From an uncultured Verrucomicrobiae bacterium (GTDB lineage Bacteria; Verrucomicrobiota; Verrucomicrobiia; Palsa-1439), in assembly GCA_963712025.1 (NCBI GenBank), contig CAVQGJ010000011.1:369562-433561 (forward strand): a stretch of DNA of 64,000 nucleotides, written 5' to 3'. Made by a program: the position numbers and the translations under genes. A model generated the notes under the pieces. It searched no databases. It saw nothing but the letters and a program-made list of their open reading frames with translations, and was not told where the DNA came from. Below, one piece after another: positions 1-41,486 of this stretch (within the stretch, counting starts at the first letter, position 1; each line of letters begins with the position of its first letter).

Positions 1-664
1 CGGTGGCGTAGGCGTACAGGCCGAACGATTCGTAGTCGCTGTGGCCGCCGATGAAGCCCGTGAACTCGTGCGCGCGCAATTCGCCTTCGAGCATCACGAC
101 CTCCCCTTCCCGGCTCTCGCGGAAGAATTCACGGTTGAGATCCTTGCCGGCCCCATTCTCGCGGGTCATGCGCTCGTAGCCGACGGGGTTGACGCACGGA
201 TAAATCGTGAGCGCGTAGTTGGATACGAGTTGTGCCGTGCGGGAAAACCGGCGGGCGGATTCCAAGGCGGCGAGAATGCCGTCGGGTTCGTCGCCGTGCA
301 CGCCCGCCACCAGACAGATCGGGACCTGCACGGCGTAGGGTGAAGGCGACAGACGGCTGACGAGTTTGAGGAGTTCGTGTCCCTTCCCCCCGAAGCTCAG
401 GGTGCCGATTCCGTGGACTTCAAACACATCGCCGGCGAGATTGCGAATATCGGCGACGAGTGAGGCGTAATTCTTCTGACGATTGGGGCCGAGACGGGCA
501 AATTCGGTTTGGACGGCTGGCGGAAAATCCTTAATCGAGAAGTTGAAACGATTGTCGGCGAACATCTTCACGACACGCCAGAATTCGTCGCGTTCCCCTT
601 CCCGGAGCATCAATTCGAGTTCGCGAACGACGATGCCGAATTGTTCTGGTGTGAGCGTTGTCAT
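1..664 (-). CDS. M14 family metallocarboxypeptidase (succinylglutamate desuccinylase/MpaA-like), 3' end beyond window edge
   Basis: Manual translation from ATG 664 (absent from the ORF track because it has no stop in the window): MTTLTPEQFG...LVAGVHGDEPDG (HxxE Zn motif)...PCVNPVGYERMTRENGAGKDLNREF...GGHSD. Confidence 0.85.
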   Translation of the reverse strand, partial: MTTLTPEQFGIVVRELELMLREGERDEFWRVVKMFADNRFNFSIKDFPPAVQTEFARLGPNRQKNYASLVADIRNLAGDVFEVHGIGTLSFGGKGHELLKLVSRLSPSPYAVQVPICLVAGVHGDEPDGILAALESARRFSRTAQLVSNYALTIYPCVNPVGYERMTRENGAGKDLNREFFRESREGEVVMLEGELRAHEFTGFIGGHSDYESFGLYAYAT

Positions 665-724
665 TGTCCACGCGCATCGTTGCCGGATGGTCTGCCGGGC
701 GCAAGCTCATTCCCATCCAGCAAA

Positions 725-753
725 TTGACGGAATCGCGGCGGTTTGATACCTT
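725..753 (+). promoter_or_regulatory. sigma70-type promoter for queE, probably leaderless
   Basis: TTGACG-17 nt-TACCTT, ending 6 nt before GTG 760. Confidence 0.55.
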
Positions 754-759
754 CGAAGC

Positions 760-1407
760 GTGGCCGATACCCTTGTCATCAACGAGATTTTTCACAGCAT
801 TCAGGGCGAGTCCTCGTATGCGGGGTTGCCGTGTGTGTTTGTGCGGTTGACGGCGTGCAACCTGCGCTGCACGTGGTGCGACACGACGTATTCGTTTCAC
901 GAAGGCGCGCCGATGAAACTCAGCGACGTGATCGTGAAGGTGCTCGAGTTCAACTGTCCGCTCGTCGAAATCACTGGCGGCGAGCCGCTCCTGCAGCCGA
1001 ATGTGTTTCCGTTGATGGCGCGATTGTGCGACCTGGGCAAACACGTATTGCTGGAGACGAGCGGGTCGGTCCACGTGTCGCAGGTCGATCCGCGCGTGAT
1101 CAAGATCATGGACCTGAAATGTCCCGGCAGCGGAGAGTGCGAGAAGAACCTCTACGACAACGTTCGCCATCTCGACAAGAAGGACGAAGTGAAGTTCGTC
1201 ATCGCCGACCGCGCGGACTACGACTGGGCGCGAGAGGTCATGGCCGAGCGGCAGTTATCGAACACGTGCACGGTCTTGTTCTCACCCGTCTGGGGCAAGC
1301 TGCCGCTCAAAACGCTTGCCGAATGGATCTTAGCCGATAAACTGCCCGTCCGCATGCAGACCCAGTGGCACAAACACATTTGGGGACCTGACACCCGAGG
1401 AGTCTAG
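760..1407 (+). CDS. queE: 7-carboxy-7-deazaguanine synthase QueE (radical SAM)
   Basis: INEIFHSIQGE, FVRLTACNLRCTWCDT (CxxxCxxC), ITGGEPLLQ, LETSG, C-terminal QWHKHIW. Confidence 0.9.
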   Translation: MADTLVINEIFHSIQGESSYAGLPCVFVRLTACNLRCTWCDTTYSFHEGAPMKLSDVIVKVLEFNCPLVEITGGEPLLQPNVFPLMARLCDLGKHVLLETSGSVHVSQVDPRVIKIMDLKCPGSGECEKNLYDNVRHLDKKDEVKFVIADRADYDWAREVMAERQLSNTCTVLFSPVWGKLPLKTLAEWILADKLPVRMQTQWHKHIWGPDTRGV

Positions 1408-1411
1408 CACC

Positions 1412-1684
1412 ATGTCGCTGCGCATCATCGTCAAGGCCGATCAAATCCGAAACTGGATCGAGGAACGCCGCGGCACGCCCGCGCGCCGGCGGAACACCGA
1501 CGCCGATGTCGCCGTGCTGTTCGGGGGCGACAACCCCGACTCCGCCAAGGCTACGTCGGGCAGGGCTGATTACGAAGCCGTCAGCGTCGATGACCTGTTG
1601 GAGGCGATGAGACTCAACCACCTCGTCCTGCTCGTCGACCAGGAGGCGGGCAACACCTTCCACCGGTTCATTCAACACGGCTAG
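1412..1684 (+). CDS. small hypothetical protein (IRxWxEERxGxPA family)
   Basis: 90-aa ORF starting 4 nt after the queE stop and ending 15 nt before the aminotransferase; co-oriented. Confidence 0.7.
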   Translation: MSLRIIVKADQIRNWIEERRGTPARRRNTDADVAVLFGGDNPDSAKATSGRADYEAVSVDDLLEAMRLNHLVLLVDQEAGNTFHRFIQHG

Positions 1685-1699
1685 AGTGGTGCCGTCGTT

Positions 1700-2929
1700 G
1701 TGAACGATTTGCTGCCATCGCGGAAGACCCGAATCCCCGGCCCGAGGTCGCGCGCGCTGTCCCGGCGGCTTCGCCGTTACGAATCCCGCAATATTACGTT
1801 TGTGTCCGAGCACTGGCCGATATTCTGGCAGCGCGCGTCCGGCGCAGACGTGTGGGATGTCGACGGCAATCGCTATATCGACCTGACGGCGGCGTTTGGC
1901 GTCGCCAGTGTCGGACACGGCAACCCGCGCGTCGTGGCCGCGCTCAAGGCGCAAGCGGGAAAGCTCTTGCACGCGATGGGCGACGTGCATCCGAATGAGC
2001 TGAAACTGAAGTTGGCGCGGGAGTTGGTGTCGTTGACCTTCTCGCGGTGGGACAAATCGGAAGCGCGTGTGGTGTTTGCCAATTCGGGCGCAGAAGCCGT
2101 GGAGGCGGCGCTCAAGACGGCAGCGATTCATACGAAACGGCCCGGGGTCATTGCCTTTGAGGGCGCGTACCATGGACTCACCTACGGCGCGCTGGATACG
2201 ACGTGGCGGGCGCACTTCCGTTCGCCATTCTCGGAGCAACTGGGCCATTTCACGGCGCATGTGCCGTTCGGTCGCGTGCCCAATGTGGCGAACATCGGGA
2301 ACTTCGGCGCGGTCATCGTCGAACCAATCCAGGGCCGCGGCGGCATCGTTGTACCGCCGGACGATTTCCTGCCAAAACTGCGCAAGTTCTGCGACGACCA
2401 CGGACTCGTGTTGATCGTTGACGAGATCTATTCGGGTTTCTGTCGCACGGGACGGTGGTTTGCGTGCGAACATTGGGGCGTGACACCCGACCTGGTGTGC
2501 GTGGGAAAGGCGATGGCGGGCGGGTTTCCGATTTCGGCGTGTATTGGGCGTGCGGACGTGATGGACAGTTGGCCCGAGTCGACTGGCGAGGCGATTCACA
2601 CCAGCACCTTTCTGGGCAACCCGCTCGGCTGCGCTGCGGCGCTCGCTTCGATCGGCGAAATGAAACGGATGAGGTTGGATGCGCGAAGCCGCGGGTTGGG
2701 CGGCTGGTTGGCGAAACGGCTGGCGAAGATCGGAAAAGTTCGCGGCAAGGGTCTGATGCTCGGTCTGGAGGTGGGCAATGCGGTCCCGCTCGTCGAGAAG
2801 CTGCTGCAGCGCGGCATCCTCGCACTGCCCGAAGGCGACCACAACGAAATCCTCGGCCTCACCCCTCCCCTCGTCATCTCGAAGAGGCAGTTGGACTTCG
2901 CTGTGAAGGAGCTGGCTCGCTTGCTTTGA
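1700..2929 (+). CDS. class III PLP-dependent aminotransferase (ArgD/GabT-like)
   Basis: DVDGNRYID, NSGAEAVEAALK, AFEGAYHG, VEPIQGRGG, IVDEIYSGFCRTG, PDLVCVGKAMAGG (PLP Lys), STFLGNP. Confidence 0.92.
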   Translation: MNDLLPSRKTRIPGPRSRALSRRLRRYESRNITFVSEHWPIFWQRASGADVWDVDGNRYIDLTAAFGVASVGHGNPRVVAALKAQAGKLLHAMGDVHPNELKLKLARELVSLTFSRWDKSEARVVFANSGAEAVEAALKTAAIHTKRPGVIAFEGAYHGLTYGALDTTWRAHFRSPFSEQLGHFTAHVPFGRVPNVANIGNFGAVIVEPIQGRGGIVVPPDDFLPKLRKFCDDHGLVLIVDEIYSGFCRTGRWFACEHWGVTPDLVCVGKAMAGGFPISACIGRADVMDSWPESTGEAIHTSTFLGNPLGCAAALASIGEMKRMRLDARSRGLGGWLAKRLAKIGKVRGKGLMLGLEVGNAVPLVEKLLQRGILALPEGDHNEILGLTPPLVISKRQLDFAVKELARLL

Positions 2930-4262
2930 GCTTTTGTTGACTCAGGTAAAACGCCAAATCGTCCTGTGGCTCGGTGGACTTGAAATAGATGTCCCCACCC
3001 TTGCGGTCGTCGCCGGGTTTGCGATACTTGAACTCGTGCCACGCTGCGTTGTCGTCTTTCAAATCGGAACCGACGCTCCACAGCACCCATTCCTTTCCCT
3101 CGCGTCGATAACGCAGTGGTTTGCCATCGAACGGGTCGATTGGTATTGATGGCAGTAAATCGGGTACAAGACCATTTAGCATGTCGGGAGGATGGCCGTG
3201 GACTTGCACAAAGCTTTGTATGGCACAAACGATCTCTGTCGCTTCAAAGTCCAAGCGGAACCGCATTTCCCTTGCATGAATTGTTTCCAAACCGGACAGG
3301 AGCATATCGGCCATGATAGTAGCGATTGGCTGATGAACGACAAGTTTCCATTTTGGGCCGTTGAATGGATCCCATTTGCGGACGACGGACTTAGGATCGC
3401 TTTGCCAGAACGGCTTATCAGCTTCGACGATCATGTCCCCGATTGTCGCGTCGAAGACCCGAGCCCCGTGTGGTCGTGGTAGCGCCCAATTCCCATTTGA
3501 CGCCACGATGCTATCGAAGTTTCTCTTGGCAAACCACAGTTCATACCGAAGGACTTCACTTGCGGGTTGTACGCCCGAGCCCATCTCATCCAGACGTGAA
3601 CGAGTACTTGCCGTGGTTGCGAGGGTGGCATGCTGCCGCAATAGCGCTGATCGGATGGCCTTCAGTCCCTGGGCATCAGCGGAGCCTGAAACGAGATAAC
3701 CCAGGGTTGTGCTGCCCTTTCCGCAATCGGTGCCAAGTTTTACGACGTCGAGATAATTGCTAATGGCTGTGTCCATTAGCTGTTCTTGTTCGGCCAGCTT
3801 GCCTTCGCAACAGAGGAGTCCCGCGAATTGTCGAATGTAAGTCCAAGAGTTGCTAAACGCGCCCTCCGAAAAGTCACATGGCATCTGGCAATTTCGCAAT
3901 GCGATGCCTCTGTTTACAATCTCGAGTATGTCGCCATAGTCTGTGATGGCTTGGTGAATCGCCGTGTCGCCGTTCGTCAACCCGCCATTGAGAAAGCCAT
4001 CTACTTCTTCCGTGCTTTGTCTAGGCAAATGCGCCGACTGCACCATTCTTATCGCCTTCGCGTAATAGTACGCCGCATTCTCAGGGGTGAGTTCCGTGAG
4101 TGTTAGAGGCTTCTTGAGGGTTTCGAGACGAACACCATTCGGCGGATGGGGATATGGTGGCAACCCCCAGATGAAACCGATATAGGAGATGATCCAAATG
4201 CCAGCGACCACTCCGCAGAACCACCAAGTGATGCGTTTGACAATCGGCCTCACGGGACGCAT
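2874..4262 (-). CDS. membrane-anchored hypothetical protein with C-terminal GspG/T2SG-like motif
   Basis: N-terminal TM (WWFCGVVAGIWIISYIGFIWG); C-terminal PDMLNGLVPDLLPSIPIDPFDGKPLRY...LWSVGSDLKDD; lower GC than neighbours; start chosen at ATG 4262. Confidence 0.75.
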   Translation of the reverse strand: MRPVRPIVKRITWWFCGVVAGIWIISYIGFIWGLPPYPHPPNGVRLETLKKPLTLTELTPENAAYYYAKAIRMVQSAHLPRQSTEEVDGFLNGGLTNGDTAIHQAITDYGDILEIVNRGIALRNCQMPCDFSEGAFSNSWTYIRQFAGLLCCEGKLAEQEQLMDTAISNYLDVVKLGTDCGKGSTTLGYLVSGSADAQGLKAIRSALLRQHATLATTASTRSRLDEMGSGVQPASEVLRYELWFAKRNFDSIVASNGNWALPRPHGARVFDATIGDMIVEADKPFWQSDPKSVVRKWDPFNGPKWKLVVHQPIATIMADMLLSGLETIHAREMRFRLDFEATEIVCAIQSFVQVHGHPPDMLNGLVPDLLPSIPIDPFDGKPLRYRREGKEWVLWSVGSDLKDDNAAWHEFKYRKPGDDRKGGDIYFKSTEPQDDLAFYLSQQKLKASEPAPSQRSPTASSR

Positions 4263-4311
4263 TATGCGATGGCTGTTGGCGGAAAACCAGCTTCTAAAGA
4301 CTTGATTTGGC

Positions 4312-5421
4312 ATGGACAAAACCGCTCTTGAACTTCAGCAACGCATCCTCGCGTTGATGGCGCGCGGCGTGGCGCCGGCGACGACGGATGAGGAGTTTGA
4401 TCGACTCGCCCGCGAGGTGTTCGCGTTGCAATACGAGCGGTGCGCGCCGTATCGCGCGTATTGCGACCGGGTAAAATTGACCCCGCAAACCGTGACACAT
4501 TGGAAGCAGATTCCCGCCGTGCCGACGAGCGCGTTCAAGGACTTTGCGCTGACGTGTTTCCCGGTCGGGGAAGCGGTCGCGGAATTTCACACGAGCGGGA
4601 CAACTCAGGAAAAGGCCGGGAAACATTATTTGCGGACGCTGGAATTGTACGAGGCGGCGATCCGTCCGAATTTCGCGGCGCATTTGGTTCCGGACAACGC
4701 GCGGTTGCCGATGATGATCCTGATGCCGTCGCCGCAAGAGGCGCCGCATTCCTCGCTCTCGCACATGATGGGGACCGTTGTCCGCGAGTTCGGCGCGAAG
4801 AACAGCGAGTTCTATGTGGAAGACGGCGTGCTGCACGTTGAGCGCGTGGTGCGCGACTTGTCCGACGCGCAAACTGCGCATCGGCCGGTCTTTCTGCTCG
4901 GGACCGCGTTCGCTTTTGTCCATCTGCTCGACCATCTGACCCGCCACAGGTTGAGATTTGAAATGGCCGAAGGCAGTCGGGTGATGGAGACGGGCGGGTT
5001 CAAGGGACGGTCGCGCGAGATGTCGAAAGCGGAGTTATACGGGCTGATCGAGCGGCACATCGGCATCCCGAAGACGCGTATCGTCAACGAATACGGCATG
5101 ACCGAGTTGAGCACGCAATTCTACGACGGCAGCCTGCGAGCGGGTCGCCAGACGGATGGCAAGGCGGCGCCGCCGTGGGCGCGGGTGGTCATTATCGACC
5201 CGAACACTGGCAGGGAGGCTGCTGAGAATGAGCGTGGTCTCATCCGCGTCTATGATTTGGCGAACTTGTGGAGTATCATGTGCATACAAACGGAGGATTT
5301 GGGGGTCGCGCGGGTCGCCGGCCCGGCATCGGGCACGAATTCATTTGAAGTCCTTGGGCGGGCGGCCGGCGCGGAAGTGCGCGGGTGCTCGTTGACGGCG
5401 GAAGATTTACGATTGGAATGA
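4312..5421 (+). CDS. luxE: LuxE-like acyl-protein synthetase
   Basis: IPAVPTSAFK, FHTSGTT (adenylation loop), VMETGGFKG, NEYGMTELSTQ, QTEDLG, C-terminal GRAAGAEVRGCSL containing the acyl-carrying Cys. Confidence 0.88.
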   Translation: MDKTALELQQRILALMARGVAPATTDEEFDRLAREVFALQYERCAPYRAYCDRVKLTPQTVTHWKQIPAVPTSAFKDFALTCFPVGEAVAEFHTSGTTQEKAGKHYLRTLELYEAAIRPNFAAHLVPDNARLPMMILMPSPQEAPHSSLSHMMGTVVREFGAKNSEFYVEDGVLHVERVVRDLSDAQTAHRPVFLLGTAFAFVHLLDHLTRHRLRFEMAEGSRVMETGGFKGRSREMSKAELYGLIERHIGIPKTRIVNEYGMTELSTQFYDGSLRAGRQTDGKAAPPWARVVIIDPNTGREAAENERGLIRVYDLANLWSIMCIQTEDLGVARVAGPASGTNSFEVLGRAAGAEVRGCSLTAEDLRLE

Positions 5422-6728
5422 GCGCAACCATTGAACAGATTCGCGAGGCGATCGGCCGGACGCGGGAGGCCCGCGAGCGGGTGTGGGCAGCATCGCACCA
5501 CCGACGCGGTGATCACGACGTTGGCGCAGGCCGCGAAGAACTGGCTCGACCCGAAGAGTCCGTGGCGGAAGCGCGCCGTGGAGCAGGCGACGACCCCGAC
5601 GGGTTTTTCCGAAGCGATGGTGAACGAGGCCATCGATCTCACGTTTGGCGCGATCACCTACGAGTCGCTGGGCGAATTGCTCGACCGCGAACTGGGCAAC
5701 CGCCGCGTGCTCGACGAGTTCTGCCTGCGCGGCCGCGTGCAAACGCGGGCCATGGCGCCCCGCCTGATCGTGCATTTCCTGGCGGGCAACGTTCCCATGC
5801 CCGGGATCGTGAGCATTTGCGGCGGGTTGCTGCTGCGCTCGGCCAACCTGGTGAAGATGTCCACGCGCGACCCCGTGTTCCCCGCCCTGTTTCTCGAATC
5901 GGTGCGCGAAGTGGACGCGGAACTGGCCGATTGCGCCGCGACGCTGGACTGGCCGCGGGGCGAACTGGCGTTGACGCAGGCGGCGGTGGGTGACGCAGAC
6001 GCGGTGATCGCGTACGGCGACGATCCTACGGTCTCGGCCTTGCGGCAACTGTCCCCGCCGACGGCGAAATTTGCCGGGTACGGCCACAAGATCAGCTTTG
6101 CGGTGGTGGCGAAAGAGGCGATGACCGAGGAGAACCTTCCCCGACTGGCGCAGGCGGCGGCGTTCGATGCGTCCGTGTACGACCAGCAAGGGTGTCTCTC
6201 GCCGCATGTGTTTTACGTGGAGGAACGCGGACAGTTTGGCCCGCGGAAATTTGCGGCGGCGCTGGCCGATGCGATGGCGGCGTATCAGGCGCGCGTGCCG
6301 CGCGGCCAGCTTTCCGTCGAGGAAGCGGCGCAGGTCGTGAAACTCCGGACCGGTTATGAATTTGCGCGCGGCGTCGGACCGGCGGATCTCGGCGTCTGGG
6401 TCGAGTCCCGACGCGGAAAGCGAGCTGGGCGGTGATTTACGACGACAGCCCCGCGTTCGTTGCGTCCTGCCTGAACCGGATCGTGTTTGTGAAGCCGACG
6501 GATGGATACAAGCGCGTGCTGGACGCGATCCAGAGATTCGCGTCGAGTATTTCGACGGTCGGCGTCGCGCCGATGAACGAGCGGGCGCTGGCGTTTGCGG
6601 GCGACCTGGCGCGGATGGGCGTGCACCGCGTCTGCCCGATTGGCCAGATGCAACGTCCCCCGCTCTCCTGGCACCATGACGGCAGGCCCAATCTGGCGGA
6701 TCTGGTCAGTTGGACCGATCTCGGGTGA
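5418..6728 (+). CDS. luxC: LuxC-like acyl-CoA/acyl-protein reductase (frameshifts near 5490 and 6360-6430, probable sequencing errors)
   Basis: ATGA overlap with luxE; HFLAGNVP, NLVKMS, AYGDD, GYGHKISF, YDQQGCLSPH (catalytic Cys), GVHRVCPIGQMQRPPLSWHHDG. Confidence 0.88.
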
Positions 6729-7606: not shown

Positions 7607-9991
7607 TCATGGCGACACCACGAGTCGAACCCGGTAAAAGCGTTGTGTTTGCACCAGGGCGTTAAAATCCGTCACGGTCACGTTCCCGCCCAAACCGGTA
7701 AAGCCAACCAGCGGAATCCAACTGCCCGCGAGCAGGTCGCCTGTGTACTCGAACACATAGGTCAGGTTGGTGGCGGTCGTGAACTGGACCTGGATATTCG
7801 AGTCAGTCGCCGTGATTGAAATAATCCGGGGAACGCTGTTGGTGGTCAGCACGGCGCCATTGTTCACGAAGCCGGCATGGAAACTCGTGTTGCCGGTGAT
7901 GGCATCAATGGTGCCGTTATTGACGACGGAGCCGTAGGATTCGACCGTGCTGCCGTTGGCCGCCACGATAACGCCGTTATTGGTGACGACGCCCGTGAAG
8001 GTGAGCGTCCCGCCGCAATCGGCCCGCACCAGGCCGCCGGGATCGACGAGAACGGCGCCATTGATCGTGCCGCAGCCGCTCAACACAGCGTTGTTGCGGA
8101 CCTCCGAGCTATTCGCAAAGGAATGGACGCCGCCGAGTAAATGGTATGTGGCGGAATCGTTGCCATCTCCCACATCGAACGTCTGCCCGTTGTTGATTGT
8201 CGTCGCGCTCGTGTTAAACATCCCCGAGCTGAGGCTGAATACGCTGCTGGCGCCGTTGGTGACCAACAACTGATCCACTGTCACCGCGCCCCCGCTTTGA
8301 GCGAATGTCCCAAGACCCGCGAGGCCCACCACAAGCTGCGCCGTCTCGGATTGGTTGGTGATGGAGAGGCTGCCGCCGGTAATCTGAATCACACCGGATG
8401 CGCCGTGGAGCACGCCAGCGAGCATGTTGGACGCGACTGAAAACTGTCCAGCGGCGACAAGGAGAGACCCCTGGCTGTTCGTCCCGAGCCCAACTGCCAC
8501 GGTTTGTGCGAGGAATTGTCCGTTCGACAGAACTACCTGGCCAACGCCTCCGGCAACGACATAGACATTCGTCGTCGAGGCGACGATATTGGAGGTATTC
8601 ACCGCCCCAATAATTAGCTGATCCACCTGCAGCAGGCCTCCGTTTTGAACAAGGGACCCTTGTCCGTACTGGCCGATGGTCAACAGGCCGGTCGCGGACT
8701 GGTTAGTGACGGTGAGGCTGCCGCCCGTGATTTCGATCGCACCGCTTGCATTTGCATTAGAAGACGTTCCGATATAGGCGCGGGCTCCCGCAGTGAGGTT
8801 GGACGCGACAGAGACAGAGCCCCCGGCAATCGTGAGGGTACCCTGCGAGTTTTCACAATCGCCGACGATGATATTCTGTGCCAGCAACGAACCGTTGGAC
8901 ACGCTCAACTGGCCTACCCCGAAACCGGCAACGGTCAGCGACAACTGGCCGGTTCCCAAGCCGTTGACGGACACGCCTTGATTGGTCACCGTCAACTGGC
9001 CGCCAGTAATGAAAACGGATCCGGTGGCGTTCTGGCCCTGAGCGATGGACATTGCGCCCGAAATACTCACCGTGCCTCCCGCGATGGTGAGCGCTCCGGA
9101 AGAACCCACGGCATCGCCCACAATCAGGTAGGAAGCGGCGAGTTGGCCGCTGGAGACAACGACCTGCCCCGTGGCGTTGCCACCGACGGTGACAAGGTAG
9201 TTGTTCGTCGCGATGAGCTGACCGCCGTTAAGGGAGAGCAGCCCCGTCGAGTTGGCGTCTTCCCCAAGACTGAGGTGTTCGGGAACCAAGAGGGTTCCTC
9301 CGAGGATCGACAACTCGCCTTGCGAAGCGGGTCCCAAGCCGAGAAACATGCCGTTGGGAACGGAAACGTTGTCCTCGGTCTGAAGTGCGCCGCTCAACAG
9401 CGTGATCTGGGCCGAACCGTAGAACCCGACGGCCATATACCCGTTGGTGAATGTGGTTTCACCATCGATCACAGAAACGGAAGCGGTGGAGTTTGTGGAA
9501 AAGCCGACGTACAGGCCACTGGAGATGAAGTTGGTGCCGGAAAGTGCGGCAATGCCCTCGACATCAGCCGCGCCCCCGTCGGCATTGTCGACGAGCAGCG
9601 CGGAGTTGGTCGTCGACAGAACGCCACCCGGGTTGACGATCAACGAATTCAGAATATGCAAGGGCGGATTGGAGGCGATATTGTTGACGAACAGCGTATT
9701 TGTGGAGCCGGTTTGGCCGGCGAGGATCAGGTCGCTCACCGTCATCGTGTTCGAGAAGCCGGAAGACGTGGAGGAATCCACGAGGACAGTCTTGTCGCCA
9801 GCGTTGGTAATGAGCATTGATTGCATGGAGGCGGGCGGAAGTCCCAACGACCAACTCGTGGCGTCCTGCCAGTAGCCGCTGGCGGAATTTGTCCAACTAT
9901 TCGTTTGGGCGTTGGCATCAGGGATTGTGAAGCCGAGAGCGACCAGTTCCAGTGGTAGCACAACCAGCAAACGTGTTATCCGCAGGTTCAT
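7607..9991 (-). CDS. secreted beta-helix (autotransporter-passenger-like) surface protein with C-terminal FYR domain
   Basis: Signal peptide, WxxxxSGxWxxxxxWSxGxPP cap, GxLTIAGG repeats, ends WIPL...VTVTD...QRFYRVRLVVSP; GGAG RBS upstream. Confidence 0.85.
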   Translation of the reverse strand: MNLRITRLLVVLPLELVALGFTIPDANAQTNSWTNSASGYWQDATSWSLGLPPASMQSMLITNAGDKTVLVDSSTSSGFSNTMTVSDLILAGQTGSTNTLFVNNIASNPPLHILNSLIVNPGGVLSTTNSALLVDNADGGAADVEGIAALSGTNFISSGLYVGFSTNSTASVSVIDGETTFTNGYMAVGFYGSAQITLLSGALQTEDNVSVPNGMFLGLGPASQGELSILGGTLLVPEHLSLGEDANSTGLLSLNGGQLIATNNYLVTVGGNATGQVVVSSGQLAASYLIVGDAVGSSGALTIAGGTVSISGAMSIAQGQNATGSVFITGGQLTVTNQGVSVNGLGTGQLSLTVAGFGVGQLSVSNGSLLAQNIIVGDCENSQGTLTIAGGSVSVASNLTAGARAYIGTSSNANASGAIEITGGSLTVTNQSATGLLTIGQYGQGSLVQNGGLLQVDQLIIGAVNTSNIVASTTNVYVVAGGVGQVVLSNGQFLAQTVAVGLGTNSQGSLLVAAGQFSVASNMLAGVLHGASGVIQITGGSLSITNQSETAQLVVGLAGLGTFAQSGGAVTVDQLLVTNGASSVFSLSSGMFNTSATTINNGQTFDVGDGNDSATYHLLGGVHSFANSSEVRNNAVLSGCGTINGAVLVDPGGLVRADCGGTLTFTGVVTNNGVIVAANGSTVESYGSVVNNGTIDAITGNTSFHAGFVNNGAVLTTNSVPRIISITATDSNIQVQFTTATNLTYVFEYTGDLLAGSWIPLVGFTGLGGNVTVTDFNALVQTQRFYRVRLVVSP

Positions 9992-10377: not shown

Positions 10378-10575
10378 AACGACTTCATCGCCGTGTGAGC
10401 CTGTTGTGTTCTGGCCTTGGAAGTGCCAGGTGCAACCGAGGCCAGTTACTGAGCGGCGGTCAGGATGAAAGCTCACACAACGAATTCAAGCGCCGTGAAG
10501 GACTCGCCCATGGAATCGATCCTGGGCCGGGTGTTGCTTGGCGGGGTTTTGGCGGTCCAAGCCCGGCAACGTGGG

Positions 10576-13500
10576 ATGAAGACGAAATTCCTCGCCGTCC
10601 TTGCCTTGGGTGTCGCGCTGATTGCGCCCGCCGTCCTCGCCCAGTCTACCAACAGTTGGGTCGGCGGCCTCGGCAAATGGGAGACGGGCACGAATTGGTC
10701 GCTGGGCATTGCGCCATCGTCCGGTGATCTCGCCGACCTGATCACCAACGGGGGCAACAACACGGCGACCATTGACGCCACGACGGCGACCAATTTCCCC
10801 GGCACCATGACCGTCAGTAACCTGACCGTTATCGGATCGAGTGGCTCGACCAACGCATTGATCCTGGACAATGCCGGTACGGCGATTCCGTTGCAGATTC
10901 TTGCCGATGCGTTGACGCTGGACACCAACGCGTTCATGGTGGTGAACAACTCGGCGGTGTTGGCGTCGAATAGTACTGTCAGCGTCGGCTATAGCGGCGC
11001 GAACTGCACCCTGATTGTCAGCAACGGCGGCGCCGTGTACGACGGCAACGGTTATGTGGGCGACGGCAGCGGCAGCAGCAACAACACGGTGCTGGTGAGC
11101 GGTGCGGGCTCGGTCTGGAGCAACAGCGCCGTTCTCACGGTAGGCTACTCGCAGACCTTCCTCGTGGACGGCCTGTCGGGTTCTGGCAACCAGTTGATCA
11201 TTACCAACGGAGGCGCGGTGTCTGACGGTAACGGGTACATCGGTGACAACTCCGAGAATGACGCCGTTGTTGTTTCGGACAACGGCTCGGTTTGGAACAA
11301 CAATGGACATCTGTACGTTGGCTACGAAGACGACTCTGATCAAGGGACCAATATACTGACGGTGATTAACGGGGGCGCCGTTTACAGCAGTGGCGGTTCT
11401 GTAGGTGGGGGGCCTAATGGGCAGGGAGACGCAGTCTTGGTCACGGGCAGCGGCTCGGTCTGGAACAACAGCGGCAGCCTGACCGTCGGCGATGGCGAAA
11501 ATGCCTCGGGCAACACACTGACGATTGCCAACGGGGGCGCGGTCTTCGCAAGCGATTTGACGGTTAACCCCGACAGAGGTTACGAGAACAGCATGTTGGT
11601 CACTGGCACCGGCTCGGTCTGCCGCGTCAACGGCCAGTTGGAGCTGGGCAATTATAACGGTGACAGCTCGCTCACCATCTCTGGCGGCGGCGCAGTATAT
11701 AGCGGTAGTGCCTTTGTGGCGGCTGACTTGGGCGACGATGTGCTGGTCACGGATAGTGGCTCCGTGTGGGACATCAGCGGCAGCCTAACGCTCGGGGCAG
11801 ACTATGGTTACGTCAATACGCTGACGATCACGAACGGCGGCGCAGTATACAGCGTCGGCGGTTTTTTGATGGGGCCCGGTGAGGTGGTTGTCTCGGGCGA
11901 AGGCTCGGTGTGGAACAACAGCGGCGATCTCGTAACCGGAGGCAGTTTTGCCAACGGGTTGTCCGTCGGCGCCGGCGGCGCGGTAAACAACGGCAACGCG
12001 GCTTTGGCTTCGGGCACCTACATAGAGATCAGCGACCCCGGCTCGGTCTGGAACAACAGCGGTAATTTGACCATATATGATGGGACGTCCCAACTTACAA
12101 TCAGCGGTGGCGGATCTGTTCTTGCCAGCAATGTCTACGTCAGCACGGGCAGCCTGTTCAACAGCGGGGGAGAAGAAGTCACCATTTCGGGCGGCGCACT
12201 GTACGTGACCAACGCATTGGGCAACGGCGTGCTGAATGTGCTGGTCGGCACGCTTTCGCTAAACAGTGGCACGGTGACGGTGGACAGGCTTGTGGCGACA
12301 AACGGCGGATCGAGAGAAGGCGGCCCTGGAATAGTGAGTTTCACCGGCGGTTCGCTGAACACCAAGGGCACGACGGTGAGCAACGGCGTTGCGTTCGTCG
12401 TCGGGGATGGAACGGATGCGGCCACATTCCAACTCGACGGCGGCGTGCATTCGTTCGCCAACAACCTCGAGATCAGCAATAACGCCACTCTGAGCGGCTG
12501 CGGGACGGTCAACGGCAACGTAGTGCTCGATCCCGGCGGCACGGTGTTGGCCGATTGCGGCGGGACGCTGACGTTGACGGGCATCGTCACCAACAACGGC
12601 AGTATCATCGCCACCAACGGGACGACGATTGATTTCCTGGAACCGGTGGCGGGGACCGGGACAATCATCTATACCGACGGGAGCGTGCAGTTTTCGGTGG
12701 TGATCAACACCGGCAGTTCGCCGGCAAATGAAGGTTCGACGAGCGGGGCTGGCACATACTACATTGGCTCGAACGCAACGGTCTGCGCTTCGGCAAGCGG
12801 CTGTTACAGCTTCGTCAATTGGACCGACCAGAACAGCAACGTGGTCAGCGCGTCAGCCTGTTACACCTTCGTTGCGGTGACCAACGAGACGCTCACTGCC
12901 ACTTTTTCGCCGAATTCGTACGCCATTACCGCGAGTCCGGCGCCGTCCGGCGGTGGCACCGCCAGCGGTACCGGCACCTACCCGTGCGGCACAAACCTGA
13001 CAGTGGTGGCGACGCCGAACAGTTGCTTCAACTTCGTGAACTGGACAGACCAGAACAGCAATGTGGTGAGCATGTCACCCAGTTACTCGTTCATCGTCAG
13101 CGCGAACCTGGCATTGGTGGCCAATTTTGCGATCGTGTCCTACACAATCAATACCAGCGCCTCGCCATCCGTCGGCGGTTCCACCAGTGGCGGCGGTACA
13201 GTGGCCTGCGGGTCGAACGTGACGGTCTGCGCGACGGCCAACTCGTGCTACAACTTTGTGAACTGGACGGACCAGAACAACGACATGATCAGCACTTCGA
13301 CGTGCTACTCGTTCACGGCGGCGAGTAACGAGACGTTGGTGGCCAACTTCGCGCTGGTTGGCGTCCCGACAAACGGCAACCTGACGGTTCTGTGGACCTT
13401 CCCCGGCGGCACCAACGGGGCGAATCCCGAAGGGCCCCTGGTGCAAGGCAGCGATGGCAATTTCTATGGGACAACAGTCTACGGCGGGCCAACTGGCTCT

Positions 13501-16500
13501 GGCACCGTGTTCCGGATCACGCCTGGTGGCAACCTGACAAACCTTCACCTGTTTGGCGGCAGCGACGGGGCCTATCCGTCTGCCGCGCTCGTGCAGGGCA
13601 GCGATGGCAATTTCTACGGGACGACAGCCGGCGGCGGCGCGAGGGGCTATGGGACGGTATTTCGGATTTCCCCCAGCGGGGCCCTGACGACACTGCACTC
13701 TTTTACCAACGGGTTGGACGGAAGCTATCCATACTGCGCGTTGATACAGGCGAGCGACGGCAATTTCTACGGCACGACCTATGAGGGCGGATCGACCGGG
13801 GCCGGCACCGTGTTTCGGATGAGTCCCGGCGGCAGTCTGTCGAATCTGTGGTCGTTCACGGGCGACGGCGGCGGCATCTATCCGTTCGCCGGGCTGATCC
13901 AGGGGAGCGACGGCAATTTTTACGGCACGACCACCTACGGCAGCACCAACGACGCGGGGATGGTGTTTCGGATCAGTCCGGGCGGCGGCCTGACGAACCT
14001 TCACTCGTTTGTCAGCAGCGAAGGGAGCTATCCGTACGGTGGGCTTGTGGAAGGCAGCGATGGCAATTTCTACGGCACGACGTACCAGGGCGGGGCCAAC
14101 GGGTACGGGTCCGTCTACCGGATCACACCGAGCGGCAACCTGACGGACCTGTGGTCGTTTACCAACGGAGTGGATGGAGGCGATTCATTTGCCGGCCTGG
14201 TGCCGGGCAGCGACGGCAATTTCTACGGCACGACCTTCGGATCCGGCGAGGGTCCCAGCAGTTACGGCACCGTGTTCCAGATCACTCCGGCCGGCAACCT
14301 GACGAACCTCTGGGAATTCACCGGCTGCGGCGACGGAGGCAACCCCTACGCGGGACTGGTGCAAGCCAACGACGGCAGTTTCTACGGCGTGACCTATGGG
14401 TTGGGGTCCGGGCCGAGTGCCAGTGGCACGGTCTTCCGAATCAATGCGGGCCTCTGCGCCAACGGGGTAAATACCAGTTCCGCGCCGCCGGCCGGTGGAC
14501 TGACCAGTGGCGGGGGAATTTTCAGCTGCGGGTCGAACGTCACGGTGTGTGCTTCGCCGAATACCTGCTATAGCTTTGTCAATTGGACCGACCAGAATAG
14601 CAACGTGGTCAGCACGTCAGCCTGTTACACCTTCGTCTCGGTGACCAACGAGGCGCTCACCGCCAATTTTTCGGTGAACACGTACACGATTACCGCGAGT
14701 GCCTCGCCGTCCGGCGGCGGCTCCGCCAGCGGCGGCGGGACGTATCCGTGCGGCACAAACCTGACGGTGGTGGCGACGGCGAACAGTTGCTTCAGTTTCG
14801 TCAATTGGACGGACCAGAACAGCAATGTGGTGAGCACGTCACCCAGTTACTCGTTCATCGTCAGCACAAATCAGACGTTCGTGGCGAATTGTTCGGCCGT
14901 GTCCTACACAATCAATATCAGCAGTTCGCCATCCGCCGGCGGCGCAACCAGCGGCGGCGGGACGGTGCCATGCGGATCGAACGCGATGGTCTGCGCGACG
15001 GCGAACCCGTGCTACAGCTTTGTGAACTGGACCGACCAGAAGAGCAACGTCGTCAGCTCATCGGCGTGTTACACGTTTTTGGCGTCGAGCAACCAGACCC
15101 TGGCAGCCAACTTCGCGCCGATCTCGTACACGATCACCGTTACCAATTTGGTCGCGGGTGGGGGGTCTGTCAGCGGCGGCGGAACGGTGGCTTGCGGGTC
15201 GAACGTGACGGTCTGCGCTTCGCCGAGTTTCTGCTACAGCTTTGTGAACTGGATCGACCAGAGCAGTAACGTGGTCAGTACATCCGCGTGCTTCACATTC
15301 CCCGCGGCGGCCAACGAGGCTCTGGTGGGCGATTTTGCGTTGATTTCATATGGCAGTGCCGCCAACAGCAACCTGACGAACCTCTGGTCATTCACCAACG
15401 GCCAGGGCGGCGCCAATCCCTATGCCGGGCTGGTGCAAGGCCGCGATGGCAATTTCTATGGCACGACCTCCGCTGGCGGCGCCAGCGGCAACGGCACGGT
15501 ATTTCGGATCGGTCGGAGCGGCAATTTGACGAATCTGTGGTCGTTCACCGGGGGCAGTGATGGGGCCAATCCAGTCAGCCGGCCTCATACAAGGCGGCGA
15601 CGGCAGTTTCTACGGGACGGCGTACGCTGGAGGGGGGAGCGGCAACGGGACCGTGTTTCGGATTCCTTCGGGCGGCAGTCTGACAAACCTGTGGTCGTTC
15701 ACCGGCGGTATTGACGGAGCCAACCCGTATGACGGACTCGTGCAGGGCAGCGATGGCAATTTCTATGGGACAACCTCCGGCGGCGGCACCAACGGCAACG
15801 GGACCGTATTCCGGATTGCTTCGAGCGGCAGCTTGACGACGCTTTGGTCATTTACCGGGGGCAGTGATGGGGCCAATCCAGTAGCAGGTCTTATGCAGGG
15901 CAGCGACGGCAATTTCTATGGGACGGCCTCCAGTGGCGGCGCCAGCGGCAATGGGGATGTGTATCGAATCAGCCCGAGCGGCAGTCTGACGAATCTATGG
16001 TCGTTCACCGGCGGTATTGACGGAGCCAACCCGAATGCTGGACTGGCACTGGGTAGCGATGGCAATTTCTACGGCACAACGCTCGGATCGGGGTCCGGTC
16101 CGAGCGCCAACGGGACCGTGTTTCGGATTACTTCGGGCGGCAGCTTGACGACGCTTTGGTCGTTCATTGGTTGCAGCGACGGAGGTTACCCATTTGCCGG
16201 GCTCGTACAGGGCAGTGACGGCAATTTCTACGGTACGACATCCGGGTCTGGGTCCGGGCCGAGCGCCTACGGCACCGTGTTCCAGATTAGTCCAAGCGGC
16301 AGCCTGACGACACTTTGGTCGTTTACCAACGGTGTGGATGGGGCTTCTTCCTACGCCGCCCTCGTGCAGGGCCTCGACGGGAATTTCTACGGGACGACCG
16401 CTTTCGGCGGGGTCGGCGGCAATGGCACCGTATTCGAACTCTTCGTCTCGTTGAATCCTCCAGCCAATCAAATTTCCGCAATCCAGGCTGGGTCCTCCAA

Positions 16501-16693
16501 CGTCGTCCTGACCCTCCTCTCGGTGGCGGGCGAGACATATCAGTTGCAGTTCAGTAGTTCGATGACCCCGGTCAACTGGACGAACGTCGACGGCGTATCC
16601 ATCACCAACAGCATTGGCGGGCTGTTGTCGCTGACGAACTTCGGCGGGGCATTGCAGCCGCAAGGGTTCTATCGGTTCGACATTACGCCCTGA
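10576..16693 (+). CDS. ~2040-aa surface protein: T5SS/PEP-CTERM-associated repeats + Cys-containing InlB-B-like repeats + two blocks of 7 Gloeo_Verruco repeats + FYR domain (one +1 frameshift near 15575)
   Basis: MKTKFLAVLALG signal peptide; GxGSVWNNSGxLxVG repeats; CYSFVNWTDQ modules; GxxPxAGLVQGSDGNFYGTT...GTVFRI repeats continue across the frameshift; ends GFYRFDITP. Confidence 0.88.
12700..16440 (+). repeat. internal duplication: [Cys-module x3-4 + 7x Gloeo_Verruco repeat] x2
   Basis: Near-identical DNA, e.g. aattggaccgaccagaa(c/t)agcaacgtggtcagc..tcagcctgttacaccttcgt at ~12817 and ~14581; recurrent gatggcaatttcta(c/t)gg. Confidence 0.85.
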
Positions 16694-16737: not shown

Positions 16738-19700
16738 CTACTTCGCAAGGCCGGCTTTGTGCGTGGTCGCAGTATAGTTGAGCGAGCGCTCCACCGCGAA
16801 ACCCAGATCGCCCACCGAGACGACAACCGGCATGGTCACGGGCGAGCCGGGACTTTGGATGGTGGCATCGATCAGGCCGTAGGAGGCCCAGGCGGTGTGC
16901 CAGTCACCCTCGCGCAGCCTCACCTTCAGCGTCCACTTGCCCGTATGTTTGTTGAATTTCAGCCGTGCCGTGTCGGGCGTACTCACTCCGAACCCATTCT
17001 TATTCAGTGTGAACTGTACTTGCGCGTTGCCCATGTCCAGGACCAACACTTGTCCGAGTGGCTTGAATCCCTCGCCCAGGTCCGGCGTCGCGGTCAGGGT
17101 GGCGCCGTCGGAGCTCGGCTTCGCGAAATTCGGTTTCAGTTGCAGTTTGGTAACGGGCATCTCACAGGCGACGGCCACGGCGAGGTTGGTGGTCACAGAC
17201 GCGTAGGCGTTGCTGACCATCACACTCGCGACGAACGGCCCGCAATTGGTGCCGTAGGCGTGGAGGGCTGTGCCCTGCGGCGAAGGGGCGTTGGTAGCGC
17301 CATCGCCAAACTGCCATTGATAACCCAGCGGCAGGCCTTGTGGATCCGTGGCGGTCACGAGGAAGAAATTGGTCTCGTCCACCACCACCACGGCGTGATT
17401 GCCGATTTGCAGCAGCGCGTTCGTCACCGTCGGCGGGGAATTCGTGATGATTGGCGCCAACGCCTGGAAAACGGTGATGTCAGCCGGGTCGGGCCAACGT
17501 ATTCGTGGCGACCGGTCCCTGCGCCGTCAGGCTGACGCGGAAGCTCGCCGCGTTGGTGTAGGTGTGCATCGGATTGGTCGCGGTGCTGGTGGCGCCGTCG
17601 CCAAAGTTCCACACCACGCCGGTGATCAGGCCCGTGGAATTGTTGGCGAATGTGACCGCGAGGGGCGCGATACCCGTCGTTGGCGAGCCGGTAAACTGCG
17701 CGTACGGCGGGGGCACTTGCACGGTGAACGTCGTGGCGCAGGACGACGAGTTGCCGGAAGCGTCCGTGACGGTGATGACAACCCTTGTCGCTCCGGCGCC
17801 CACGACCGTGCCAGCCAGCGGTGACTGGGTTTTGAGCAGTGCGTTGCTGGCCGTGCAGTTGTCCGTCGCCTGCACCTTGGCGGTGAAGTCCGGCAGCACC
17901 GCTTCCCCGACGCCGTTGGCCGGCGCGGTCTCGACGGGAGCGCAGGTAATGATCGTCGGTGGCGTCGTGTCGACCACGGTGATCAATGAGGTTTCGGTCA
18001 ATATATTGGCGCCGCCTGTGCCGCGCACGGTGAGGCTCACGGAGTACGGTCCTCCACACGTGTACGTGTGCACCAGGGTTGTTGCGGCGGTATTCGTCAC
18101 CGTCCCGTCTCCCAGATTCCACGAGCGGTTGGTGATCGTGCCGGTCGAAGTGTCGGTGAACGTGACCATCAACGGAGACGAGCCGTTGGTCGGCGCGGCA
18201 CTGAACCGGGCCGCCGGGCCCGACGTGCCGCTGCCGGTGACAGCGTTGCTCGAGTTGCCGCCGTTGGACACGAAGATGGCGGTCCCGGCGAAACTCCTGG
18301 CGGATGACGGCGTGAAATTGATCACGACGTTGGTCGAACCCAAGCCCGGAACGTTGTACGACGCGCCCGAGCCGACGGCAAATCCCGCGGCGCTGATCGT
18401 CGCCGTACCGCTGAGGGCCGCGCCTCCGCCGTCGCTTACGAGAAAGCTCGCCGAAACGGTGTTGCCGACGGTGACGGTCCCGAAATTCAGTGTGAGCGGG
18501 CTGACGCTGAGTTGCGCGGGCGTGACGGCCGCGCCGGTCACCGCGTTGGACCACACGACGCTGCCACTGGTGAACACGACCGAGTTGGTATAGTCACTGG
18601 CGGATGTGGGGCTGAAAGCCACGGTGACTGTGCCGGTCTGTCCCGCAGGAATCGTGAATGGATTCCCGCCGGGAAGCGCGAACGGGCTGTCGTCAATCGC
18701 CAGCGCAACCGCTCCCGTGAGAAGCGCCTGGGTATTGTTGATGACGGTAAACGACTGATTGCTGGTTTGGCCGGTAAGAAGCGTTCCGTAGTCGAGATTG
18801 CCGGGGCGAACGACGAACGGCGGTGGACTGTTGACGGTGGTGGTGATCGAGGCCGTATTGTTCGACGCGACGGGATCGGGCGTGAGCCCGGTCACGACGG
18901 CGGTGTTCGTGAGCTGGGCCGGGACATTGGGCAGGACGCTGATGGTGACCGCGGCGACACCGTTGTTGGTGAGTGCGCCAAGATTGCAGGTGACAACGCC
19001 GGCGATATTCGTGCACGTGCCCTGGCTCGCGGAAGCGGAACTGAACGTGACGCTGGCTGGCAGGGCGTCGGTGACGGTGACGCCGATGGCGGTGGCCGGG
19101 CCGTTGTTGCCGATGGTCAGGGTGTACGCAAGGGGCACCGTGGCGACGGCCGGATCGGGCGAGGCCGATTCAGCGAGCGCGAGGTCGGCGGCAAGACCGT
19201 TGAGGGCATTAATCAGGCTTTGGCCCCGGGGAGTGCCCCAGCCGGTGCAGAGGTCGTAGCCGGGCGCGGCGAAGAATTTCGTAGGGCTGGCGTTGTTGGT
19301 GTCATTGCCGATGGTGACATCGTGGAAGTTGCTTGTGTAACTGGAACTGTTGCCGATCGAGTAGATCGCGGGATTGAGGAATCCGACGGTCACGCGGCCA
19401 TTGGCGATGGCTTGCTGGTTGACCAGGGCCGTAAATGCCGCCCACAACGGCGCGGCGCAACTGGTTCCACCGAAGTCGCCCGTCTGGCCGTTGTTGTAAA
19501 TGACATAGATGTTGTCCGCGGTGAACGCGACATCGGGAATGTTGCGCATGGACGTCGAGCCATTATTGGCGGACATGCTGGTGCCCTGCTGCCAATTGGG
19601 GATCATATAGGAAGTGCTGATGCCGCCGCTGCTGGCATCGGGCTGCGCGGGCATCCAGTTCCAGACAATGTCTGAAACCCAGGACCCACCGGGTCCGGTG

Positions 19701-20908: not shown

Positions 20909-21139
20909 GGGAACCTCGCGCCGCCGCGCCCCATGTCTCTGGTGGGCATTTCGACACATGTTCGAACGGTTTGTGCCTTTAGAAATAGCACCAGCCGTGC
21001 CACGGCTGGTATCGCAGGTCGTTCTGGGGCAATGGGTTTCACGATAAAGACGCATGCGCAGACAGATTCGCCACGAAGGCATGAATTGCGCCAATCCGCG
21101 GGAGAATGGTCGATGGGAAATGCGATCTGGCGATTGGCA

Positions 21140-32683: not shown

Positions 32684-32693
32684 CATCCGTTCA

Positions 32694-33057
<364 letters not shown>

Positions 33058-36497: not shown

Positions 36498-36588
36498 GTT
36501 CCGACTTTACCAGATCTGCTGTTCCGAGTGCACCGACAACCTTCGGTGGGAACCCGCTAAATGAACTGTGACGAAGTACGGGCCGTGA

Positions 36589-41433: not shown

Positions 41434-41486
41434 GGCAACTGGGTGAATGATACCAGTAACCGTCGCGGAAGGCAAACCCGCTACGT

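Follow-up and report, generated by a model that had tools for sequence, protein, structure and literature searches.

A 64,000-nucleotide stretch of DNA from an uncultured Verrucomicrobiae bacterium (assembly GCA_963712025.1, contig CAVQGJ010000011.1, positions 369,562 to 433,561; hereafter the window) carries near its left end the genes for a LuxE-type acyl-protein synthetase, a LuxC-type acyl-thioester reductase and a class-III aminotransferase, close to queE, the gene for 7-carboxy-7-deazaguanine (CDG) synthase. The three enzymes could turn CDG, the product of QueE, into preQ1 (7-aminomethyl-7-deazaguanine), replacing QueC and QueF. We put this forward tentatively, on the evidence of gene context, and would give it a little less than an even chance. 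It is the reading that we favour because the link to que genes was found in two phyla that differ in the aminotransferase and in the order of the genes.

Co-conservation of the module and its link to queuosine genes

LuxE relatives numbered 6209 at E<=0.001 among 8000 scored candidates, and a scan with one genome per species gave 585 confirmed LuxE relatives. The best 80 of the 585 loci, each reaching 10 kb to either side of LuxE and named L001 and so on, were searched with the window proteins, and the locus counts refer to this set. A locus was taken as testable for LuxC when at least 1300 nt followed LuxE (74 loci), for an upstream aminotransferase when at least 1400 nt preceded it (72 loci), and for an upstream queE when at least 2200 nt did so (71 loci). 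Some loci are given as Spirochaetota-labelled or Pseudomonadota-labelled, and six testable loci carried no phylum label.

The window LuxE matched PF04443 with 65.3 bits (cut-off 24.9). Its TSGTT loop (T94-S95-G96-T97-T98) and the cysteine of its C-terminal GCSL motif (Cys359), both pointed out in the initial annotation of the window, were present and invariant in 22 of 22 aligned relatives. We take the loop to be the adenylation loop of LuxE and Cys359 to be its acyl-accepting cysteine. The ATGA coupling of LuxE to LuxC described there was likewise seen: the LuxE stop overlaps an ATG at 5418-5421, and the same overlap occurs in L001, L002 and L003. The gene upstream on the same strand was confirmed as a class-III aminotransferase by a match of 332.1 bits to PF00202 (profile positions 8-402 of 403), and its translation contains the stretch VGKAMAGG, presumably the region of the pyridoxal phosphate lysine. 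It matched 70 NCBIfam models, and among the best 25 of these, which include the ArgD, GabT, putrescine and ornithine types, it stayed below every cut-off (best 325.9 against 552). The nearest solved structures were those of GabT, acetylornithine/LysJ and putrescine aminotransferases, enzymes that interconvert terminal aldehydes and amines.

LuxC followed LuxE in 73 of the 74 testable loci. In 56 of 72, a homologue of the window aminotransferase preceded LuxE on its strand, and copies from other phyla were 43-53% identical to that of the window. By group, it was found in 17/19 Verrucomicrobiota, 26/27 Myxococcota, 4/4 Spirochaetota-labelled, 6/6 unlabelled and 3/6 Pseudomonadota-labelled loci, and at this position in 0/6 Gemmatimonadota, 0/2 Sumerlaeota and 0/2 Bacillota loci. 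Aminotransferases of other types stood beside LuxE in Bacillota (omega-type class III) and in a Sumerlaeota locus (class I/II). Longer predicted proteins gave a similar picture: among 77 longer LuxE forms, 23 were LuxE-LuxC, 46 joined a zinc alcohol dehydrogenase to LuxE, and two (P0184 and P0186) joined a class-III aminotransferase to LuxE. Because the three genes are co-conserved across phyla and the longer predicted proteins agree with this, we regard LuxE, LuxC and aminotransferase as a real module. Its predicted function as an acid-to-aldehyde-to-amine pathway is supported by the same comparisons, including the alternative aminotransferases, and so the activate, reduce and transaminate logic that had been proposed from the window sequence was upheld.

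The queE gene scored 304.7 bits against TIGR04349 (cut-off 300). Its translation shows CxxxCxxC and has roughly 50% identity to proteins annotated as QueE in Legionella, Pseudomonas and Acinetobacter. A queE gene lay upstream of the module in 18 of the 71 testable loci, 16 of 19 in Verrucomicrobiota and 2 of 2 in Bacillota, and in none elsewhere. The three Verrucomicrobiota loci without it were L008, where the contig ends inside orf90 (a small gene between queE and the aminotransferase gene), and L012 and L016, which have no aminotransferase either. LuxE identity to the window was 51-92% among Verrucomicrobiota loci and queE identity went down to 71%; the outer flanks of the queE loci varied, with M14, GFO/IDH oxidoreductase or NADH dehydrogenase genes.

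In the Bacillota loci L035 and L038, queD, queE, luxE, luxC and an aminotransferase gene succeed one another on a single strand. queD and queE are 3 nt apart, about 100 nt separate queE from luxE, luxE and luxC overlap, and 3 nt lie between luxC and the aminotransferase gene; the surrounding genes are uvrC, a deacetylase gene and an MFS transporter gene. QueD of this run passed its cut-off (100.7 against 89.25), and QueE scored 262-265, below its cut-off of 300. QueD and QueE are accompanied by no proteins other than LuxE, LuxC and the aminotransferase, and no ORF scanned in the run matched the QueC or QueF models. The aminotransferase belongs to class III, is 30-31% identical to that of the window, has omega-aminotransferases as its best models, and comes after LuxC, not before LuxE. 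With a different aminotransferase at the opposite end, the Bacillota module was assembled differently around the same que genes. QueC and QueF were also not seen in the window or in the 10-kb flanks of LuxE, which are the sequences that the search covered.

In the initial annotation queE had been considered a possible passenger. This view is contradicted by the Verrucomicrobiota, where 16 of 19 testable loci have it together with the module, and by its recurrence, along with queD, in the Bacillota operon, and queE is the best clue to the substrate of the module. Among 80 longer QueE forms, 23 were fusions with QueC, the canonical partner, and four (P0241, P0264, P0265 and P0267) read into the aminotransferase described here, with QueE parts 46-54% and aminotransferase parts 55-64% identical to those of the window. 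We rejected the four as true fusions, since out-of-frame stretches between the two parts indicate adjacent genes merged by errors. As merged predictions, they add another, more distant lineage in which the two genes are neighbours. A QueD-type gene was also found 1.2 kb past LuxC in L025 (89.7 against 89.25), beside a short-chain dehydrogenase/reductase (SDR) gene; it may be part of a pterin pair and is weak as a queuosine link.

A candidate route from CDG to preQ1

The first step of the proposed route, formation of the carboxylic acid CDG by QueE, is established chemistry of the QueE family. We take CDG as the likely substrate of the module because it is the sole carboxylic acid that QueE makes and because LuxE enzymes act on carboxylic acids. 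In the second step the LuxE-type enzyme would adenylate the CDG carboxylate and the acyl group would be moved to Cys359; such chemistry is established for LuxE, with CDG as the presumed substrate here. The LuxC-type reductase would then take the thioester on its active-site cysteine and, with NADPH, release 7-formyl-7-deazaguanine. In the last step the aminotransferase would convert this aldehyde to preQ1, ready for insertion into tRNA by Tgt. The steps replaced would be those of QueC (CDG to preQ0) and QueF (preQ0 to preQ1). According to PMC13740343, 7-formyl-7-deazaguanine is a known, detectable compound that arises as a hydrolysis product of QueF variants, and in PMC11130926, QueD, QueE, QueC and QueF alone are named for this stretch of the pathway. 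Our literature search, which did not extend to the supplementary tables of comparative queuosine papers, found no paper that ties LuxE/LuxC or an aminotransferase to preQ1 synthesis.

The relationships among LuxE and LuxC copies were examined in two trees made by a quick method without a mixture model, in which deep branches are weak. In the LuxC tree (75 rows) a split with 99% support placed Verrucomicrobiota, a Sumerlaeota row, the unlabelled L077, Bacillota, Gemmatimonadota and three Pseudomonadota-labelled rows on one side, and the Myxococcota-type copies on the other. In the LuxE tree (108 rows) the copies fused to alcohol dehydrogenase and those of plasmid LuxE-LuxC-SDR operons formed one clade with 98% support. 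Apart from it, the Verrucomicrobiota copies and the Myxococcota-type copies each had a clade with 99% support, and the placement of the Bacillota pair was not resolved. That alcohol-type LuxE copies have a clade of their own, apart from the aminotransferase-linked clades, counts for the preQ1 route. Only 12 LuxE and 12 LuxC columns separated Verrucomicrobiota from Myxococcota-type copies, and at these columns the Bacillota copies sided with neither (4 against 3 in LuxE, 1 against 6 in LuxC).

Several observations weigh against the route. What supports it is gene context; it would require genomes with the module to be without QueC and QueF, and the data span just the flanks of LuxE. L035 and L038 are 94-95% identical to each other and therefore count as one lineage, and the Verrucomicrobiota loci form one clade, so that their shared synteny may partly be inheritance. 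Within that phylum, L012 and L016 carry LuxE-LuxC without aminotransferase or queE. No queE was in reach in the 26 testable Myxococcota, six Gemmatimonadota and four testable Spirochaetota-labelled loci, where a que gene of any kind was absent within 10 kb, and the Myxococcota and Spirochaetota-labelled loci carry orthologous aminotransferase-LuxE-LuxC sets. The neighbours in these three groups (cation efflux, 3'-phosphoadenosine-5'-phosphosulfate reductase, Suf and B12 radical S-adenosylmethionine (SAM) genes) gave no hint of queuosine. Since related LuxE-LuxC pairs have other partners, of the alcohol type, the substrate may differ between clades. No preQ1 riboswitch or other Rfam family was found near the module in L035, L038, L001, L010, L015, L017 or L018, and in the window, where RNase P was the sole Rfam match, there was no preQ1 riboswitch. 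Finally, LuxC of the window needs three net frame changes in 1.3 kb, much denser than in the rest of the window.

Some of these observations would fit a generic acid-to-amine module with another substrate, such as a fatty acid, a dicarboxylate or the side chain of glutamate or aspartate, in which case the adjacency of queE would reflect co-regulation or inherited synteny. We consider this unlikely, though well worth keeping in view. It agrees with the lack of any que gene nearby in 26/26 testable Myxococcota and 4/4 testable Spirochaetota-labelled loci, with the use of 4-aminobutyrate (GABA), putrescine and acetylornithine by the nearest solved relatives of the aminotransferase, and with the related LuxE-LuxC pairs that have SDR or alcohol-dehydrogenase partners and transporters. 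There is also a precedent, since a preprint (bioRxiv 10.1101/2025.08.11.669332) describes a LuxC-like TabE and an omega-transaminase TabA that make a fatty amine in tambjamine biosynthesis. However, a generic module leaves unexplained the direct que adjacency in two phyla that have different aminotransferases and gene orders, and the five-gene Bacillota run. No fatty-acid, polyamine or arginine genes occurred among the conserved neighbour families, and the aminotransferase scored under the cut-offs of the best 25 of 70 models, ArgD, GabT and putrescine aminotransferase included. The initial suggestion of a fatty amine, polyamine or ornithine-like diamine as product found nothing in its favour here; such products may apply to the Myxococcota-type copies.

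The que genes themselves would also fit a module that converts a 7-deazaguanine or pterin acid to something other than preQ1 for tRNA, for example a deazapurine secondary metabolite, a precursor of DNA modification, or an aminomethyl pterin. For the pterin the starting acid would be 6-carboxy-tetrahydropterin, the product of QueD and also a carboxylic acid. QueD and QueE are common to several deazapurine pathways, and this explanation draws on the same que adjacency as the preQ1 route. We nevertheless judge it improbable. The conserved neighbour in Verrucomicrobiota is queE rather than queD, which points to the QueE product. The conserved families included no genes for tailoring, whether of the glycosyl- or phosphoribosyl-transferase, the DpdA-like or another type, and the module looks like a housekeeping one that tracks phylum boundaries in the LuxC tree. 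A search of 50,697 phage records gave one weak, partial LuxE match, and no LuxE relative was found in phage deazaguanine clusters.

If CDG is converted to preQ1 by LuxE, LuxC and an aminotransferase, preQ1 synthesis without QueC and QueF would occur in Verrucomicrobiota, in a Bacillota lineage and perhaps in Myxococcota and others, a distribution that we rate as just short of evenly balanced between true and false. A step for which a single solution has been assumed would then have been solved twice, by convergence, and the textbook scheme of queuosine biosynthesis (QueD, QueE, QueC, QueF) would acquire another branch. Genomes scored as preQ1-negative for lacking QueC and QueF would need re-scoring, which would affect models of the exchange of queuosine precursors in communities. 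The LuxC/LuxE family would also receive its first assigned role that does not concern lipids. The numerous non-luminous homologues could then be seen as general two-component carboxylate reductases whose product depends on the partner, be it an aminotransferase, an SDR or an alcohol dehydrogenase. The route would be of interest for biocatalysis, as a cascade found in nature that takes a polar heteroaromatic acid to an amine.

Variant loci and the genes of the window

LuxE-LuxC pairs with other partners were encountered in several settings. The zinc alcohol dehydrogenase-LuxE fusions (46/77, within P0123-P0178) came, where named, from Chloroflexota (Nitrolancea and Thermomicrobiaceae). LuxE-LuxC followed by an SDR gene was found on plasmids of Lactiplantibacillus plantarum, Pantoea dispersa, Priestia megaterium and Azospirillum lipoferum; the plasmid operons span 1624-6321 in L081, 7956-11303 in L082, 7944-13780 in L083 and 8025-13866 in L084. 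In Lactiplantibacillus the SDR gene is preceded by a transporter gene of the SLC23 type, and an ABC transporter is present in Azospirillum and Priestia. A guaC or xanthine hydroxylase gene is near two of the four. Judged by gene content, each of these looks like an acid-to-alcohol operon for an imported acid.

In eight Myxococcota-type loci (L021, L026, L043, L045, L048, L071, L075 and L080) the gene immediately after LuxC encodes a B12-binding radical SAM protein with DUF4070, and an Rrf2 regulator and Suf iron-sulfur assembly genes often come behind it. A luciferase-like monooxygenase gene was considered as a partner of the module and rejected; it occurred in eight Myxococcota-type loci at inconsistent positions. 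In the Sumerlaeota metagenome-assembled genome (MAG) of L063 (8769-12287), LuxE stands between an HD-domain phosphohydrolase gene and the class I/II aminotransferase gene, with LuxC 7 kb away beside riboflavin genes. In L077 (7144-12426), an unclassified MAG, the module comes after the genes for peptide deformylase (def) and methionyl-tRNA formyltransferase (fmt), all on one strand.

The genes at the left end of the window are listed in Table 1. We judge the functional unit to be queE, orf90 and the class-III aminotransferase gene together with luxE and luxC, and the M14 gene and the 481-residue gene to be bystanders. Because the latter, on the minus strand, sits between the aminotransferase gene and LuxE, these two do not form one transcription unit here, and the set makes up at least two units. 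A promoter and terminator scan gave a promoter-like site before LuxE (4237-4265), with promoter counts only slightly above those of shuffled sequences, and a hairpin after the aminotransferase gene (2914-2932), with terminator counts not above shuffles; we place no weight on either.

Table 1. Features at the left end of the window, in order of position
Feature	Position	Strand	Basis
M14/AstE-like metallopeptidase, N-terminal 221 residues only (left window edge)	2..664	-	weak Pfam matches
queE, CDG synthase, radical SAM	760..1407	+	NCBIfam TIGR04349
orf90, small conserved protein of 90 residues, same operon as queE	1412..1684	+	no family match
Class-III (omega-amine type) aminotransferase	1700..2929	+	PF00202
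Membrane-anchored protein of 481 residues, N-terminal hydrophobic stretch	2874..4319	-	no Pfam/NCBIfam match
LuxE-type acyl-protein synthetase (adenylating)	4312..5421	+	PF04443
LuxC-type acyl-thioester reductase, three frames in this assembly	5418..6728	+	PF05893

Fifty-seven window ORFs, eight in the module region and 49 others, were compared with family models; three giant repeat ORFs (7607-9991, 10465-15714 and 17480-21094) and the ORF at 36243-36560 were left out. Within this set no member of the Bac_luciferase or LuxD families was found, in line with the initial annotation, which had seen no luciferase or LuxD in the window.

LuxC had been described as carrying the catalytic motif DQQGCLS. 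The motif, with the active-site cysteine, is indeed present in the frame 5431-6435, but a single open LuxC frame is not: the match to PF05893 is divided between this frame (199.1 bits, profile 5-291) and the frame 6432-6728 (59.5 bits, profile 309-401). In an alignment with L001, L002 and L003 (mean column identity 92%), the window LuxC shows an extra G at 5485-5487 and a cluster of insertions (+1, +2, +1, +3, +1) between about 6366 and about 6425. To read LuxC from the ATGA start requires frames 0, 1, 2 and 0, with three net +1 shifts. The gene is intact in the relatives, at 423-461 residues.

Other genes of the window are split as well. A single TP_methylase domain is divided over two ORFs (28957-29355 and 28430-29011, minus strand), as is the RibD deaminase domain (36309-36506 and 35395-36321, minus strand), and the DHBP-synthase and GTP-cyclohydrolase-II domains lie in overlapping ORFs at 40212-41475 (minus strand), which are fused in L063. 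Since these genes are also split, the window appears to contain assembly indel errors, and the LuxC breaks are more likely of this kind. They may instead reflect real decay of this copy, a possibility that we retain because the shifts are much denser in LuxC than elsewhere.

The orf90 product has no Pfam, NCBIfam or PDB relative, and its distant library matches share no family. The gene was kept between queE and the aminotransferase gene in 13 Verrucomicrobiota loci with 63-92% identity, and among 1.84 billion proteins its family has no more than 34 cluster representatives at E<=1e-3. Homologues of the 481-residue protein (36-49% identity) were at the same place only in L001, L003, L006, L008, L019 and L025; in other loci the place held nothing or an ICMT-like gene. 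We judge this family to be fast-evolving and its gene not to be part of the module.

The M14 gene had been described as divergent and assigned a deprotecting step. An M14/AstE-like gene on the minus strand was confirmed, although its two Pfam matches exceed the thresholds by little (31.4 against 25 and 25.0 against 21.6); it diverges from queE, not from LuxE, and is cut by the window edge. Homologues occurred in 7 of 22 Verrucomicrobiota loci, all close relatives, and in 0 of 58 others, at varying distance and sometimes with other genes before queE. On this distribution we judge M14 not to be part of the module. The proposed four-gene pathway, in the manner of ArgB-C-D-E or LysW, would act on an N-protected amino acid from which M14 removes the protecting group. 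M14/AstE-like enzymes do remove N-acyl groups, the aminotransferase resembles the acetylornithine and LysJ aminotransferases, and the best NCBIfam match of the M14 gene was N-acetylornithine deacetylase, at only 25.9 bits against a cut-off of 400. The core three genes are co-conserved, but M14 is present in 7 of 80 loci, lies on the opposite strand, is often parted from queE by other genes, and has no conserved N-acyl or gamma-glutamyl ligase gene nearby. The four-gene pathway therefore fails by the condition that the initial annotation had set for it, co-conservation of all four genes, and we regard it as very improbable.

Elsewhere in the window, a bacterial RNase P RNA of class A was found at 32690-33057 on the minus strand (225 bits). 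Three very large genes for repeat-rich, secreted or autotransporter-like proteins lie at 7607-9991 (minus strand), 10465-16693 (plus strand) and 17480-21094 (minus strand), and the second of these has an apparent frame change near 15557-15714.

Comparison with known systems

The module is most readily compared with the LuxC-LuxE fatty acid reductase of luminous bacteria (PDB 7xc6), of which chain E is the sole PDB relative of the window LuxE (E 7e-23) and chain A that of the window LuxC. Both systems have PF04443 and PF05893 proteins encoded by an adjacent, overlapping gene pair. The window LuxE retains its adenylation loop and its acyl-carrying cysteine near the C terminus, and the window LuxC its active-site cysteine. 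In contrast, the window proteins scored far below the NCBIfam luminescence equivalog cut-offs (the NF052244/NF052251 pair), with 77.9 against 550 for LuxE and 107.2 against 750 for LuxC. The LuxE score, so far under its cut-off, indicates that the window protein is not a luminescence orthologue. The partner in the window is an aminotransferase instead of a luciferase, queE is a neighbour, and no luxAB or luxD was among the scanned ORFs. The substrate of the window module is probably not a fatty acid.

TabE and TabA of the biosynthesis of tambjamine BE-18591, as described in the preprint, likewise combine LuxC-like reduction of a thioester to an aldehyde with a class-III transaminase that gives an amine. 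Unlike the module described here, TabE uses acyl-acyl carrier protein or acyl-coenzyme A without LuxE, on a C12 fatty acyl substrate and within a secondary-metabolite cluster. The plasmid LuxE-LuxC-SDR operons of Pantoea, Lactiplantibacillus, Azospirillum and Priestia and the Chloroflexota alcohol-dehydrogenase-LuxE fusions share with the module a LuxE of 34-47% identity, an adjacent LuxC and an enzyme that tailors the aldehyde. Their tailoring enzyme is a reductase, however, so that an alcohol would be the expected product; a transporter is often present and their LuxE falls in a separate clade. The literature search found no characterisation of these operons or fusions.

In the ArgB-ArgC-ArgD-ArgE and LysW routes, too, a carboxylate is activated, reduced and transaminated. 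They rely on a kinase together with a phosphate-dependent reductase, and on N-protection with a deacylase, whereas no conserved deacylase or N-acylating enzyme was seen among the conserved neighbours here.

With preQ1 synthesis by QueC and QueF, the route proposed here would share both its start (CDG) and its end (preQ1), and in Bacillota its genes adjoin queD and queE. The enzymes are unrelated, and the proposed intermediate is an aldehyde in place of the nitrile preQ0. The canonical route uses two ATP, ammonia and two NADPH; by stoichiometry, the route through LuxE, LuxC and the aminotransferase would need one ATP, one NADPH and an amino donor.

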